Source: a virus. From it: a stretch of 64,000 nt of DNA. A program made the position numbers and the translations under genes. Every line of letters starts with the position of its first letter. Position 1 is the stretch's first letter. The notes below the pieces were generated by a model, which was not told the origin of the DNA, did not search any database, and saw nothing but the letters and a program-made list of their open reading frames with translations. Below, piece by piece: positions 5,027 to 44,070 of the stretch. The DNA lies in IMG/VR virus record IMGVR_UViG_3300031963_000013, one strand, 5' to 3'.

Positions 5027-5747
5027 ACATGTGTTAGTAATTACCGGTTGCGATGAAGCCATGCATTCAGTGCTAGATCTTACTATACCTTCAAAATTAA
5101 GATACACTCAAAAACATGGATACGACTTTAATGTGCTGAGATCTTTTAGATCATTTCCGCACATAGGTGTAGATGCTAAAAACCCTATCGGTTTAGGATT
5201 TGCTCGTACCATACATGTATTTCAAATGTTAGAGCACTACGATGTTGTTATGTGGATAGATGGAGACTCTGTTATCACGAACGATAATTTTACAATAGAT
5301 GATTTTATAAATGATCAACATACGATATATTTTTCTTACGATTGGCCTGTTGCTATGGACGGTAGTACTGGCCACGTTGGATTTAGTGGTGGTAATTTTA
5401 TAATAAAATCCACAGAACACGTTGAAGAATTATATAGTACATTTATAGAATATAGTAAACATTTCTTAAACGATCACGGAGCAGACCAAACGTGTTTAAA
5501 CGTAATACACAATAACACACCACTTAGAAAGCACTACGGATTGTTAGAACACAAATACTTAAACGCAGTGCCTGAGTTTATAACAAGAACTAGCGTGTGG
5601 CAAGCAGATCCAAATAGAACTGGTCCAAATAGGCGTTTTAGTATACCTTCTCCGTGGAATAAAGATTGTTTTCTTGCCCACTTAACCGGATGTAATACGG
5701 CTGACAGAATAGATTTACTACAAAACGAGTTCAAAGATTATTTGTAA
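5016..5747 (+). CDS. Glycosyltransferase, GT34/nucleotide-diphospho-sugar transferase-like
   Basis: SKLRYTQKHGY, VMWIDGD, DQTCLN and FLAHLTG motifs. Confidence 0.75.
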   Translation: MNNKHVLVITGCDEAMHSVLDLTIPSKLRYTQKHGYDFNVLRSFRSFPHIGVDAKNPIGLGFARTIHVFQMLEHYDVVMWIDGDSVITNDNFTIDDFINDQHTIYFSYDWPVAMDGSTGHVGFSGGNFIIKSTEHVEELYSTFIEYSKHFLNDHGADQTCLNVIHNNTPLRKHYGLLEHKYLNAVPEFITRTSVWQADPNRTGPNRRFSIPSPWNKDCFLAHLTGCNTADRIDLLQNEFKDYL

Positions 5748-5748
5748 T

Positions 5749-7398
5749 ATGAAACAAAATAAGTTCAAAATAATAATCGCGTCTTATAACAATGAAGATT
5801 GGGCATATTACAATATAGTTAGTGTGCTCAATCAAACTTATAAAAATTTTAATGTAGTTTATGTTGATGACTGTTCTACAGATAATACCAATTCAATAGT
5901 ATCTGATCTTATAAAAAATGATAATAGATTTAATCTTATAAGAAACAAAACAAATCTTGGAGCCGATGGAGGAGCAATATATAACTATATTAGATTTTAC
6001 GAATCGCTAGAAGACGAAGAGATATGTGTATCTATGTGCGGAGATGATTGGCTGATAGATGAAAATGTATTAGAGAATCTAAATAACTACTACAACAAGT
6101 ACGATGTTTGGATGACATACGGAGAATTCTATGTTTACGATGGGTCAGAGGATGTTTTAAAAGCCAATCCACAAAATACCCCATATCCAGACTTTGTGCA
6201 TCAATATAAGCTATATAGAAAAGACATATGGAGAGCAAGTCATTTATTAACTTTTAGGGGATTTTTAGCAAAAAAGATAGATCTTAATGATATAAAATCA
6301 AGATACAATAACAAGTGGTTTTATCATGCACCTGACTTAGCTGTTGCTTATCCGTGTTTAGAAATGTGTCCAAAAGAAAAGATAGGTGTTGTTGATTTTC
6401 CAACATATGTTTGGAATTCAAGCGAGCAGTGTCAAGTAAGAACTAGGCACAGAGAGTCTGAAGACAACATGAAATATGAAATCGAAATTAGAAACAAAAA
6501 ACACTACAAGGAGGGTTTAACTGGAGAAAAATTACCTCAGATAAACGCTATTGGTGGAAGTAGAGAAAACAACGATATACCAAAAGATTTTACTTATGTG
6601 TATAATATGCGTGATGGAGAATTTGATGCTGTCATAATACCTGATATGGAGATCATTAGATACATTGAAGGGCAAATATGCATAGACAAGAAGTGTCCAG
6701 TGATAGCTGATATACACGAACCTCCTTATTTGTTTGAGCAACAGAGAGTTTACGATACTGTATACAAAAACTATAAGATGTTTGATCGTATACTCACTTA
6801 CGATGAAAGACTACTAACACTACCAAACGCAGTATTCAGAAACGGAGGGTACGAATGTGTATTAAATAAAAGCGTACACACTGAAGAATATCCGACATTA
6901 TCAGACGCCAGTCTATATTCAATATATGATAAAAGTAAAAGCGTATCTATAATAAGTTCGAACAAAACATTTACGGATGGCCACAGATACCGCGTATCTT
7001 GCGTAGAATTAATAAGGCGTAACGATCAGAGTGTGGACATTTATGGAATGGGTTATAACCCAATAAATGGAAAATTGATCGGTTTAAAAGATTATAAGTA
7101 TTCTATCGCTATAGAAAACGGTGTATATAAAAACTATTTTACTGAAAAAATATTGGATTGCTTTTTAACAGGCACTATTCCAATCTATAGGGGATGTACA
7201 AACATTTTAGATTTTTTTAATCAAAAAGGAATAATTACTTTTGATACCCATGAAGAGCTTTTAGAAGTATTAAAAACAATAAGAAATGGTGGTTATGATA
7301 TAGACAAGACAATTATAGAGGAGAACTACGAATTGGCTTTGAAGTATCGATACGACAATGATAAGATATTTAATAAATACATAAAAGATTTAATATGA
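5749..7398 (+). CDS. Fused GT2 and GT10 (fucosyltransferase-like) glycosyltransferase
   Basis: N-terminal IIIASYN...VDDCSTD (GT2). C-terminal YKYSIAIEN...YFTEKILDCFLTGTIPIYRG (GT10 motif). Confidence 0.85.
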   Translation: MKQNKFKIIIASYNNEDWAYYNIVSVLNQTYKNFNVVYVDDCSTDNTNSIVSDLIKNDNRFNLIRNKTNLGADGGAIYNYIRFYESLEDEEICVSMCGDDWLIDENVLENLNNYYNKYDVWMTYGEFYVYDGSEDVLKANPQNTPYPDFVHQYKLYRKDIWRASHLLTFRGFLAKKIDLNDIKSRYNNKWFYHAPDLAVAYPCLEMCPKEKIGVVDFPTYVWNSSEQCQVRTRHRESEDNMKYEIEIRNKKHYKEGLTGEKLPQINAIGGSRENNDIPKDFTYVYNMRDGEFDAVIIPDMEIIRYIEGQICIDKKCPVIADIHEPPYLFEQQRVYDTVYKNYKMFDRILTYDERLLTLPNAVFRNGGYECVLNKSVHTEEYPTLSDASLYSIYDKSKSVSIISSNKTFTDGHRYRVSCVELIRRNDQSVDIYGMGYNPINGKLIGLKDYKYSIAIENGVYKNYFTEKILDCFLTGTIPIYRGCTNILDFFNQKGIITFDTHEELLEVLKTIRNGGYDIDKTIIEENYELALKYRYDNDKIFNKYIKDLI

Positions 7399-28843: not shown

Positions 28844-29227
28844 ATGTCGCATTTCGTATCAACCCAGGCCCAGTTAAGACAGTTAGAGACACGCAACTTA
28901 GTTCGCAAGCACAATTCCGATCCCATCGTATACAAGCGATTCGCCGCATCGAAGGTAAGCGATCACGTTAAGCCTATGACGGTTGTTGAATTCACCGACC
29001 TGTTGGGCCGTAAGCACCGCATCCCTGTACGCAACAAGAAAATGATGCGCGAGGCGCAGGAGTTTTTGGCCATCTTCAAGCGCGAGGTTAGCGATGTGAA
29101 CGCTATCATTAACGAGTACCCGATGTCGTACGGTAAGGTTGCGCCCGAGTTTGCGGCTGATTGCGTTAACGAACTTCTTGCTTACGGCCTTTCTGAGGAA
29201 TTGGTTAAGCGCATCATCGGTTACTAA
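28844..29227 (+). CDS. Hypothetical early protein
   Basis: ATG 28844 lies downstream of the TATATTTAC element. Confidence 0.65.
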   Translation: MSHFVSTQAQLRQLETRNLVRKHNSDPIVYKRFAASKVSDHVKPMTVVEFTDLLGRKHRIPVRNKKMMREAQEFLAIFKREVSDVNAIINEYPMSYGKVAPEFAADCVNELLAYGLSEELVKRIIGY

Positions 29228-29272
29228 TCTGTACGCCGTTGCTGGCCTGGAAAACACCCAAAACAAACAAAC

Positions 29273-39770: not shown

Positions 39771-39871
39771 AGTCAGGTGGCGAAATTGGTAACGCAAGCC
39801 TTCACAGAGCAACTGAACCGCAAGTGAGTGAAGCACGTAGGTTCTTACAGGTTCGAATCCTGTCCTGACTA
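39771..39871 (+). ncRNA. tRNA-like element with variable core (copy 2)
   Basis: AGTCAGGTGGCGAAATTGGTAACGC ... ACAGGTTCGAATCCTGTCCTGACTA. Confidence 0.75.
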
Positions 39872-40087: not shown

Positions 40088-40185
40088 AGTCAGGTGGCGG
40101 AATGGTAGACGCAGTTGATTACAACCCCGAGGTAAAATCTTGGCGCAAAAAGAGTTGATTACAGGTTCGAATCCTGTCCTGACTA
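40088..40185 (+). ncRNA. tRNA-like element with variable core (copy 3)
   Basis: Same constant arms with an unrelated middle. Confidence 0.75.
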
Positions 40186-40405: not shown

Positions 40406-40512
40406 AGTCAGGTGGCGGAATTGGTGTCAATTAAGTTACTCAAAAGGTTGTAAAGCTTGAATGTGGTACATTCTGTTGCTACTTAATATAGGTTCGAATC
40501 CTGTCCTGACTA
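40406..40512 (+). ncRNA. tRNA-like element with variable core (copy 4)
   Basis: AGTCAGGTGGCGGAATTGGT ... AGGTTCGAATCCTGTCCTGACTA. Confidence 0.7.
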
Positions 40513-41631: not shown

Positions 41632-41786
41632 TAAATTATGACAAAAATAGAAATTAAATTAAATGTAGTCGCTGGCTCAACAGAGCATCATAAGTTGATA
41701 GCGTTTTTGCACGACAACCTTTATGAATTTTCGTCAAAGCCCAATGGCACAAAACCCCTTGTTATGTGTCAGTTAATATTATTAAA

Positions 41787-41903
41787 ATGGTAACAATTAA
41801 AACAAAACACGGAGAGTTTAAATACAAAGATTGGCAATGGAACTTGGCTTGGTTACTGGTCTTTTTATGTGGAGTAGCTGTTGGAATTATAGGTGGTCTT
41901 TAA
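41787..41903 (+). CDS. 38-aa membrane peptide (cassette 1)
   Basis: MVTIKTKHGEFKYKDWQWNLAWLLVFLCGVAVGIIGGL; the stop abuts the site. Confidence 0.55.
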   Translation: MVTIKTKHGEFKYKDWQWNLAWLLVFLCGVAVGIIGGL

Positions 41904-42010
41904 TGGCACATAACGCTTGGCGGCTTTGCGAAGTGGGTAGAAAAGGCAGCTTTTGCCAAACCCGTGTTATGCGTTCGGGCGGTATTTGAAAACGAATTAA
42001 ATTTTAAAAT

Positions 42011-42544
42011 ATGAATAGTAAAATAATCAGCTTTGCAATAGAAGCCCACAACAAAGTAAACCACCTGTATGATGGCAAACCTTATTCCGTCCATTTGTCA
42101 ATGGTTGCACATTATGCAGTAAAGTATATTGATGCAATACCTCAACAATGCTGGGGAACTGTATTAAATGCTGCATGGTTACATGATACTATTGAAGATT
42201 GCAGACTTACTTACAATGATGTAAAAGAAGTTGCAGGGTATGAAGTTGCTGAAATCGTTTACGCTTTAACAAACGATAAGGGTAAAAACAGAAAAGAACG
42301 TGCTGGCGAAAATTATTACAAAGGTATTCGTGAAACAGCTTGGGCAAAGTATGTAAAGTTATGTGATAGGCTTGCTAATGTAAAATATTCAGTTGATACC
42401 AATTCTCGAATGTTGGAAGTTTACAGAAAAGAAAATGCAAGTTTTTTAACTGGTTTAATGTCGGGCAGTTCTGATGCCTTAATTTATAAATACCCGTTGG
42501 AAGAATTAGACACATTGCTTTATGGCGTGTCAAAGGTAGCATGA
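42011..42544 (+). CDS. HD-domain hydrolase, small alarmone hydrolase/Mesh1-like (cassette 2)
   Basis: PYSVHL, AAWLHDTIED, ALT and VKLCDRLAN motifs. Confidence 0.8.
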   Translation: MNSKIISFAIEAHNKVNHLYDGKPYSVHLSMVAHYAVKYIDAIPQQCWGTVLNAAWLHDTIEDCRLTYNDVKEVAGYEVAEIVYALTNDKGKNRKERAGENYYKGIRETAWAKYVKLCDRLANVKYSVDTNSRMLEVYRKENASFLTGLMSGSSDALIYKYPLEELDTLLYGVSKVA

Positions 42545-42607
42545 CCACCAACGTGGTAGCATTGTTTTTGTGCTGATATTTTTTAACTAAAAACTCAATT
42601 ACTTAAT

Positions 42608-42982
42608 ATGGATAATAGCAATTCAAAACTTGAAGGTACTTCCGAAAGCCAGCATAAGAACAATGCAATGTTACCTGCCGTTTCTGATATGGAGTATATT
42701 TTATGTGCAGCAATTTGGTTTGATGATGGTGAGCAATATGAGCATCAGCCTAAAAATATTACTACTGGGCTTGTTTTTTGCGGCTATAGACACGGATGTA
42801 TTTTTCAGCAGATAGGTGGCACGATGGGAGAAAGGAAACAGCTCGGTATTTATGAAAAGGAGCAGGGCTTTTTGACGAATAGAAATCGTTTTGTTGATAG
42901 AGAAGAGGCCGCAAAAATTGCATTACAGGCGAACCAAATTGCAGAACCATTACTTAGGCTATTCAGCGAGGATTTATACTAA
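42608..42982 (+). CDS. Hypothetical phage protein (cassette 3; start uncertain)
   Basis: ILCAAIW...GYRH...QGFLT..NRFVDREEA...LFSEDLY. Confidence 0.7.
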   Translation: MDNSNSKLEGTSESQHKNNAMLPAVSDMEYILCAAIWFDDGEQYEHQPKNITTGLVFCGYRHGCIFQQIGGTMGERKQLGIYEKEQGFLTNRNRFVDREEAAKIALQANQIAEPLLRLFSEDLY

Positions 42983-43099
42983 TGTTCGCAATGGCAGTGT
43001 AACGTCAGGTATTTGTGAAGGCGGCACGAATACCCTTTAAATTAACCGCAAGTGTCCAGCCGCTTGCACAAATACCCTTGTTATAGGGCGTTTATTATT

Positions 43100-43414
43100 A
43101 TGTCAGGAGGAAGATTTGATTATACACAATATCACATCAACACTATTGCGGATAGTATTGAAAGTGAATTAGAACGTCAGGGCAAAGAAAAGCCTAAAGA
43201 CGAATTGTATTTTGATAAGGAATACTTAGAAAAATACCCAGAAGAAAAGTATTACTATATTCATCCATTAGAGGTGCAAAATGAAATGCGAAAAGCTATC
43301 AAAATACTTCGTCAGGCTTCAGTCTATGCCCAACGAGTTGATTGGTATTTGTCTGGGGATGATGGAGATGAAAACTTCTTAAAGCGTTTGAAGGCTGAAT
43401 TAAATGCCCTATAA
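43100..43414 (+). CDS. Hypothetical phage protein (cassette 4)
   Basis: MSGGRFDY...RVDWYLSGDDG; the stop TAA lies inside CTATAAC. Confidence 0.75.
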   Translation: MSGGRFDYTQYHINTIADSIESELERQGKEKPKDELYFDKEYLEKYPEEKYYYIHPLEVQNEMRKAIKILRQASVYAQRVDWYLSGDDGDENFLKRLKAELNAL

Positions 43415-43482
43415 CGGATAGGTATTACTGCCGCCTGTGAATTGGCAGTGCAACAGTATTTAACAATTAAACAGTTTACAAT

Positions 43483-43695
43483 ATGCAAAACAGTACAGAA
43501 AAGAACGTCAGCACAGGTGGAAGTAATACCAATGTTATACGCCGTTTGTCACGATGGCTAAAAATTAGAATGTTAAAGACAAAGATGTATAACCTTGATT
43601 GCGATATGATGTTTTTTGCAATCCCGTTTTCGCAGTATGAAAAAGAAATGGAAGCGTACCAAAATGAATTAGAGTGCTTGTCAAATGGCGTATAA
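43483..43695 (+). CDS. Hypothetical protein (cassette 5), started within the upstream hairpin loop
   Basis: ATG in the loop reads through GTT; the stop lies inside GTATAAC. Confidence 0.55.
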   Translation: MQNSTEKNVSTGGSNTNVIRRLSRWLKIRMLKTKMYNLDCDMMFFAIPFSQYEKEMEAYQNELECLSNGV

Positions 43696-43771
43696 CGTTT
43701 TGCAGGTTGCTTTAGTGGCGACCTTAACAGATAAACTTGATTAGAATTACAAACTTTAAATAAACAAAGAT

Positions 43772-43975
43772 ATGTCAAAAGAAAACGAAACTAAGCCATT
43801 GAAGCAACCTGATGTTAGCAGTAGTGCGGATTACGAGGGATTTTACACTCATTTAAAAGAGTATGAAGAAAATGGAATATCCACAAGTTTTAAAGACTTG
43901 GTAAGGTTGGCAAAACAATACAATTGTGAAATACCAAAAGTGGTAGATGGAAAACTTGTGTTTAAAACGATATAG
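43772..43975 (+). CDS. Hypothetical protein (cassette 6), started within the upstream hairpin loop
   Basis: The only ATG is in the loop; reads through the arm (KPLKQPDVSSS). Confidence 0.6.
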   Translation: MSKENETKPLKQPDVSSSADYEGFYTHLKEYEENGISTSFKDLVRLAKQYNCEIPKVVDGKLVFKTI

Positions 43976-43988
43976 CATTACTAATAAT

Positions 43989-44070
43989 GCCCCGTTGGTG
44001 AAATTGGTAGACACACCAGACTTAGGATCTGGTGCCGAAAGGTGTGAGAGTTCGAGTCTCTCATGGGGCA
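43989..44070 (+). tRNA. tRNA-Leu(TAG)
   Basis: CCAGA-CTTAGGA-TCTGG anticodon arm and class II variable arm. Confidence 0.92.

Follow-up and report, generated by a model that had tools for sequence, protein, structure and literature searches.

In integrons, the choice of the recombined strand is thought to rest on extrahelical bases in the folded attC site, which are read by a domain specific to the integrase IntI. A second example of a folded substrate is attP(+) of the CTX phage, a hairpin of one DNA strand that is recombined by the host enzymes XerCD and serves as a single site for integration of the whole phage. In the 'reverse' integrons of Treponema and its relatives the integrase and the cassette genes are co-directional, and the integrase lies upstream of the array. 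For 263 canonical attC sites, 1.24 G:T pairs per site have been reported on the bottom strand and 0.39 on the top strand, with the bottom strand being the more stable of the two (Nivina, 2016). Clusters of attC sites lacking integrases (CALINs) have been described in virulent phages, including Polaribacter phage P12002L (Qi et al., 2023; PMC9892861), and in Bacteroidetes the IntegronFinder 2.0 analysis listed only In0 elements and one complete integron (Salinibacter ruber). Here, we describe a cassette array in the IMG/VR virus record IMGVR_UViG_3300031963_000013, of which a stretch of 64 000 nucleotides was analysed (referred to below as the window). The array is probably an integrase-less set of about six cassettes from an integron-like system common to Bacteroidota and their phages, in which the sites would act via a hairpin of one DNA strand and the cargo genes of the phages are flipped.

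The cassette region (41.7–44.0 kb) lies in AT-rich, one-directional phage DNA with tRNA genes and thymidylate synthase. It contains six small open reading frames (ORFs) with five imperfect palindromes between them (S1–S5) and a half-site (S0) at the 5′ edge. Each full site is ordered as (T/C)AACG, a spacer of 4–5 nt, an L stem of 17–20 bp, a loop of 20–90 nt, the return arm, a spacer of 0–2 nt and TGTTA. The five co-oriented window sites and 53 sites of related contigs are built like attC, with R and L boxes in inverted orientation, cores of AAC/GTT, a central spacer that is unpaired and a loop of variable length. The array would be a candidate CALIN, a term that applies to at least two attC sites without a nearby integrase; the window has five sites and no integrase within its 64 kb. 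In addition, the start of a cassette (after GTTA) is complementary to its own end (before TAAC) over 11–17 bp, which is the signature of units able to close into a circle, as integron cassettes do.

Base pairing was counted in the inner stems and in the pairings of the cassette ends. A preliminary description of this sequence had reported ten G–T pairs, no A–C pairs and two G–A mismatches on the sense strand, and this count was reproduced. The inner stems are those of S2 (42542–42680, CAACG…TGTTA; stem 42559–42575/42650–42666, 17 bp with two G·T), S3 (42993–43090; stem 43008–43025/43059–43076, one G·T and one A·G), S4 (43405–43544; stem 43421–43439/43512–43530, one G·T and one G·A) and S5 (43686–43824; stem 43703–43719/43795–43811, two G·T), the last three of which run from TAACG to TGTTA. 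Together, these four stems hold 63 Watson–Crick pairs, six G·T, no A·C and two G·A. S1 (41904–41976, TAACG…TGTTA) is a more compact hairpin, homologous to the GGGCTTGGCGAAG/TTTTGCCAAACCC site type of the related contig L003. The cassette-end helices contribute four or five G·T and no A·C, which gives 10–11 G·T and no A·C for all helices of the window. The helix of cassette 1 (read by hand, with G41761 as the anchor) has 11 bp, that of cassette 3 has 13 bp and one bulged base, that of cassette 4 has 15 bp and that of cassette 5 has 17 of 18 bp with one T·T, each including one G·T; the helix of cassette 2 is weak, with 7 bp including one G·T when read by hand against GCATGAC (42539–42545). A further G·T outside the earlier count is the AACG/TGTT core pair, which is found in all five sites. 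Local base composition alone would give a G·T share of 0.54, for which ten of ten corresponds to p ≈ 0.002, but most of the G·T pairs in the window occupy a few homologous, conserved positions and hence are not ten independent events.

The four inner stems contain no single-base bulge, as had been stated before, and the extrahelical bases found in the L box of the recombined strand of integron sites are missing from them. A single bulged T in the 5′ arm was seen in some sites of the related contigs L003 and L004. Both strands of each window site were folded as single-stranded DNA, as the preliminary description had proposed. The minimum free energies of the sense and antisense strands were −11.2 and −9.6 kcal mol−1 for S1, −22.6 and −19.3 kcal mol−1 for S2, −15.4 and −15.2 kcal mol−1 for S3, −17.6 and −17.8 kcal mol−1 for S4 and −14.9 and −11.4 kcal mol−1 for S5. 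The sense strand is thus favoured by 1.6–3.5 kcal mol−1 at three sites, whereas the other two are ties, so that the asymmetry within the window is modest.

Homologous arrays were identified in three IMG/VR contigs using the right-arm motif as the query, in three further phage contigs among relatives of the thymidylate synthase (one of them L055, where about 12 sites fall within 4 kb) and, using a cassette homolog, in one further contig (L136). A covariance model (R1) was trained on 14 compact relatives. In the 64-kb window it returned exactly S1–S5, all on the plus strand (26.7 bits with an E value of 0.002 for S1; 53.4 bits for S3), and missed the half-site S0. The model gave 53 related sites across eight phage-type contigs. 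In the alignment of these 53 sites to R1, 90.5% of the cells hold standard pairs compared with 65% after shuffling (a value reached in none of 500 shuffles), and the covariation score is 0.604 compared with 0.171 for shuffled alignments and at most 0.15 with slid partners. G·U forms the core pair in 52 of the 53 sites and one L-stem pair in 44, and the pairs next to the latter have changed on both sides in 15–28 sequences. In the L stems of 35 sites, with G·T and A·C scored alike, 79 G·T were counted against 21 A·C; much of the A·C derives from one conserved position in two site types (GGGC opposite ACCC). As single-stranded DNA, the sense strand was the more stable in 34 of 37 family sites, by a mean of 2.1 kcal mol−1 (Wilcoxon p = 4 × 10−7). 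The claim that the hairpins fold preferentially on the sense strand is borne out by these numbers, and the larger alignment, which had been suggested as a check, shows strong covariation together with a persisting G·T bias. The bias is real and largely position-specific, with wobbles being kept rather than scattered.

It could be argued that the excess of G·T has no function and results from C-to-T mutation biased towards the G-rich strand, as the GC skew of the sense strand is positive across the region. Composition yields a G·T share of only 0.54, however, the wobbles hold fixed positions despite heavy covariation, and those of the bacterial sites described below are antisense to the genes, all of which makes this explanation very improbable.

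To place the sites relative to integrons, attCaadA7 was used as a class 1 integron control. The strand of this site that reads TCTAACG…TTGTTAGA is sense to intI1 and antisense to aadA7, with the hairpin 5′ of its own cargo; it is the published bottom strand and has the same AACG/TGTT asymmetry as the phage sites. The preliminary description had considered the strand bias to be unlike canonical attC. This contrast has to be withdrawn, since canonical bottom strands share the G:T bias and attCaadA7 shares the asymmetry of the cores. The 79 to 21 excess of G·T and the folding energies of 34 of the 37 sites favour the integrase-sense strand, which in integrons is the recombined one. Judged from sequence, the G·T-rich strand corresponds by every polarity marker tried to the bottom (recombined) strand of integrons.

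The orientation of the genes is a different matter. In the phage contigs all of the 98 adjacent ORFs share the foldable strand, whereas 30 of the 32 adjacent ORFs in four Bacteroidota genomes (Ilyomonas, Chitinophagaceae, Arcicella and Spirosoma) are on the other strand. The latter is the canonical layout, in which cassette genes are antisense to the recombined strand and attC is 3′ of the ORF; this layout is absent from the phage contigs. The family sites in the bacterial genomes retain the same fixed wobble positions. By these polarities, the part that is flipped in the phages is the cargo genes and not the strand of folding, and the G·T bias follows the DNA site, not the mRNA. As the bias stays with the site where the genes are on the other strand, a cause at the level of the transcript is unlikely as a general explanation.

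This bears on the possibility that the hairpins act in mRNA and that the G·U pairs of the sense strand are due to selection for RNA structure, with roles such as processing, stability or control of start sites in the loop. The sites are on the coding strand in all 98 phage cases, the loops of S2, S4 and S5 contain start codons (ATG at 42608, 43483 and 43772, respectively) and G·U in RNA stabilizes more than G·T in DNA. The 30 bacterial cases in which sites with the same wobbles are antisense to their neighbours are nevertheless hard to reconcile with such selection, which also leaves unexplained the cassette-specific complementarity of the ends and the recombinase at the end of related arrays. 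Moreover, the site pattern is not that of intrinsic terminators and no Rfam family matched at the window sites. We consider a function in mRNA alone to be unlikely. Of the functional fold proposed in the preliminary description, the single-stranded sense-strand hairpin, with ORFs on the opposite strand from those of canonical integron cassettes, is retained; the version involving the transcript, with an RNA intermediate, is not.

A candidate enzyme was found next to three of the related arrays. In contigs L055 and L099 a tyrosine recombinase of 265–267 amino acids starts about 80–180 nt past the last site on the same strand, and in G003 the array reaches to within about 400 nt of a homolog of 279 amino acids. 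In L055 the recombinase gene spans 5762–6565 and the site nearest to it 5551–5691. All three arrays are upstream of the recombinase and on its sense strand. Among 80 ThyA-linked phage loci, homologs of this recombinase occur only in two of the four array-bearing loci. The best PDB matches of the enzyme are XerA and VchIntIA, and the catalytic motifs are present. The alignment to VchIntIA consists of two blocks, with about 48 residues of the IntI insertion skipped, and TIGR02249 was matched by the L055, L099 and G003 recombinases in two stretches at 143–163 bits, compared with a cut-off of 265. The additional domain specific to integron integrases is lacking, and by its sequence the array-linked enzyme is assigned to the Xer/IntI clade of tyrosine recombinases, but is not IntI. 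An enzyme of this clade with catalytic motifs, placed on that strand as intI is in integrons, means that the different recombinase chemistry suggested earlier is not needed.

Such a chemistry on the top strand might have been provided by an HUH/Y1 transposase of the IS200/IS605 or REP/RAYT type. Enzymes of this kind use hairpins of one defined strand, and the window has no tyrosine recombinase. Three related arrays, however, end in a tyrosine recombinase, which in the L055 and L099 contigs is the only one, and the AAC/GTT core and the R-L-loop-L-R layout are of the attC type; the involvement of an HUH/Y1 enzyme is therefore highly unlikely, although no search aimed at HUH/Y1 genes was made.

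The IntI insertion reads extrahelical bases, and its loss from the array-linked enzyme fits the absence of such bases from the window stems. The choice of strand may rest instead on the fixed wobbles and on the asymmetric spacer. In the four Bacteroidota genomes no integron integrase was found above the cut-off and no recombinase was found near the arrays. Among cultured phages, Polaribacter phages Freya_1 to Freya_10 (MT732463–MT732472) vary by as much as 4.1 kb in the stretch that precedes a related integrase (34% identity), and this variable stretch showed no family sites.

On the basis of these observations, the system might operate as follows. Each cassette would be bounded by an attC-type imperfect palindrome, and the site would work as a hairpin of one DNA strand; we infer that the substrate is single-stranded DNA. 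The working strand would be marked by fixed G·T pairs, of which the core and the extended cassette-end stem would each have one and the L stem one or two. The 265–279 amino-acid recombinase would act on these sites and probably cut within the 5′-arm AAC, in which case the hairpin would move with the gene on its 3′ side. For a phage gene, which is sense on the recombined strand, the hairpin would then be 5′ of the ORF and would sometimes enclose the start codon, whereas a gene of a bacterial chromosome, antisense on this strand, would have the canonical layout. A crossover at the left core is likely by analogy with IntI. ORFs that begin in the loop and read through the right arm are present at S2, S4 and S5 of the window and at sites 2174 and 4848 of L055.

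The position of the crossover was further considered using the T4_Y16D cassette (cassette 3), which recurs in L136 amid different neighbours. Its upstream site is 123 nt in one and 126 nt in the other, with weak and patchy similarity, and its downstream site is unrelated. An alternative is that the crossover takes place at the right core (G|TTA), which would give the usual layout relative to the ORFs: the hairpin would belong to the upstream gene, and its loop would donate a start codon and N-terminus to the gene downstream. The high identity (88%) between the window and L136 starts exactly at TGTTA (42669) and extends only to just before the next TAACG (42997), in one stray contig cassette 4 is fused at 43079 to another right arm, and the three N-termini encoded in loops are alike (M-x-N/K-S/E…). 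On the other hand, from the integrase geometry and the class 1 control, the AAC that is cleaved would be that of the 5′ arm on the G·T-rich strand. Between the window and L136, length and part of the sequence are preserved in the site upstream of T4_Y16D but not in the downstream one, and T4_Y16D homologs are without the loop-encoded extension. Crossover at the right core is accordingly considered to be improbable, and the left core is preferred.

Several results weigh against this assignment or against the wider interpretation of the array as part of an integron-like system. The boundaries of identity between the window and L136 are among them, as are two stray contigs in which cassette 4 is connected to arms of other sites, at 43079 and 43417; with joins at both cores, exchange may take place at both. 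The extra unpaired bases are in the 5′ arm (spacer of 4–5 nt versus 0–2 nt), whereas canonical extrahelical bases are in the 3′ arm of the bottom strand. Most of the G·T pairs are conserved in sequence and could be protein contacts instead of wobbles. The 64-kb window itself has no tyrosine recombinase. P12002L_attC1, which is a member of the family (see below) and the only one tried at the bench, was the one of six sites that IntI1 failed to recombine (PMC9892861). Finally, no differences in the window array were found among 20 metagenome runs of freshwater samples, which belong to 15 studies (2017–2025); the contigs and reads of these runs contain no excision joints and hence no sign of current activity, and no RNA data set is listed among the runs with the array. 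With respect to thymidylate synthase, the array is positioned like the complete element of L055, and it is probably a frozen, integrase-less remnant. With the exception of the window and L136, no cassettes are shared at the DNA level among the arrays.

A more specific proposal can be made tentatively, and we regard it as possible rather than probable. Bacteroidota and their phages may have a separate integron-like system with a short Xer-like recombinase that lacks the IntI domain and with hairpins that lack extrahelical bases, in which the strand would be set by the fixed G·T pairs and the asymmetric spacer. In the phages, the hairpin 5′ of the gene might form in the mRNA as well, around the start codon, and so serve both as a recombination site and as an expression signal.

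Compared with integrons, the phage arrays are alike in having single-gene cassettes, AAC/GTT palindromes with an unpaired spacer, L stem and variable loop (56–140 nt here), an excess of G:T and a greater stability on one strand, the AACG…TGTT asymmetry on the integrase-sense strand and a position upstream of the integrase on that strand. They differ in the phage-linked integrase, which is without the IntI insertion of about 48 amino acids, in the window inner stems without extrahelical bases, in the placing of extra bases in the 5′-arm spacer, in the length of the cassette-end stems (11–17 bp) and in the phage cargo, which is sense on the recombined strand and runs in the same direction as the integrase. 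New here are the flipped cargo with the hairpin 5′ of the gene, the inner stems of the window without extrahelical bases and the integrase without the IntI insertion. A full-text search of a limited literature collection returned no description of the site family, of the short recombinase or of flipped cargo.

The CTX attP(+) system resembles the present one in the use of a one-strand hairpin by a Xer-type tyrosine recombinase, but has no cassette array. The reverse integrons of Treponema also have an integrase and cassette genes that run in the same direction; here, in contrast, the integrase is downstream of the array, the geometry of sites and integrase is canonical and only the cargo is flipped. 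The sites are not Xer/dif sites, which consist of one short double-stranded site with two arms around a centre of 6–8 bp, whereas here the arms are separated by a loop of 20–90 nt and selection acts on pairing within a strand. The CALINs of Qi et al. (2023) are similar in being clustered attC-like sites without an integrase in lytic phage genomes. In that work (PMC9892861) the sites were taken as ordinary attC and were reported to have 'divergent directions'; the family, its own recombinase and the flipped cargo were not remarked upon.

Phage P12002L (L151) carries six sites of the same family as the window. The published P12002L_attC1 corresponds to L151 30001–30063 on the minus strand and is a family member. 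Between 29.2 and 39.3 kb of this genome, a family site on the sense strand precedes each of five genes, four of which code for methyltransferases and one for DNA modification; this fits hairpins that move with the gene on their 3′ side. The site published as 'attC2' (29175–29243, plus strand) does not belong to the family; it finishes with GTTAGGC, the end core of the adjacent cassette. The presence of the family in a cultured phage makes bench work possible. Extrahelical bases and the IntI domain are both missing and yet the strand asymmetry is stronger, which provides a natural test of other means of marking a strand. The family occurs in Chitinophagaceae, in Cytophagales-type genomes and in many freshwater and marine phage contigs, so that cassette platforms may be wider than surveys based on integrases show.

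Pattern and model scans of bacterial genomes were treated with caution. The matches of a genome-wide pattern scan were mostly due to chance and were discarded, with only four Bacteroidota loci being real. When R1 was run on whole bacterial genomes, 150 candidates were scored per genome; the long bacterial sites score poorly, and site counts are unreliable there. The bacterial sites of 185–220 nt (in L033, L018, L025 and L007) carry, in the loop, a TTCCGTC(T/C)GCCCGAAC-like motif that is directly repeated two or three times, and shorter traces, CGTCAAGCC, precede the right arm of phage sites. From their sequence, the loop repeats and the phage traces may be accessory binding sites.

At its 5′ end the window array is bounded by S0 (41709–41767, plus strand), which consists of a right arm only (L′-R′, …GCACAAAACCCCTTGTTAT). 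It is a direct repeat of the right arm of S3, and the right arm matches sites from IMG/VR and Bacteroidota. All six ORFs are on the plus strand. The cassette 1 ORF (41787–41903) encodes 38 amino acids and that of cassette 2 (42011–42544) encodes 177 amino acids with a weak HD_4 domain. The cassette 3 ORF (42608–42982) encodes T4_Y16D (PF26092), with the conserved domain running from an internal ATG at 42689; its first 27 codons are inside the S2 loop, which is 74 nt long, and the right arm. Homologs of T4_Y16D are mostly 98–101 amino acids in length and cover 77% of the cassette 3 query. In L147–L150 T4_Y16D is a tightly packed, ordinary gene of other phages without flanking sites, and the three contexts examined beyond L136 and L057 showed ordinary genes and no sites; the homolog in L057 was too diverged to align. 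The cassette form in the window looks derived, and the occurrence of the same gene as an ordinary gene elsewhere and as a cassette here bears on how cassettes arise.

The cassette 4 ORF (43100–43414; 104 amino acids) belongs to no family and the cassette 5 ORF (43483–43695) encodes 70 amino acids, or 41 from the ATG at 43570; both have their stop in the TAAC core. The stop of several cassette ORFs is the TAA of this core (43412–43415 and 43693–43696; about 5143–5147 in L055), often past a conserved AATGGC-like motif. The last cassette ORF (43772–43975; 67 amino acids) is followed by an end core, GCATTACTAATAATG (43975–43988), that was judged to be decayed by reading the sequence and that abuts tRNA-Leu at 43989. 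A search of GenBank phages with the window gave tRNA matches only, and no exact match to the window was obtained in IMG/VR. Upstream of the array, the Rfam tRNA model gave matches of about 100 nt (32–43 bits) at 39771–39871, 40088–40185 and 40406–40512; these were not called by ARAGORN and resemble tRNA-like genes with long inserts.

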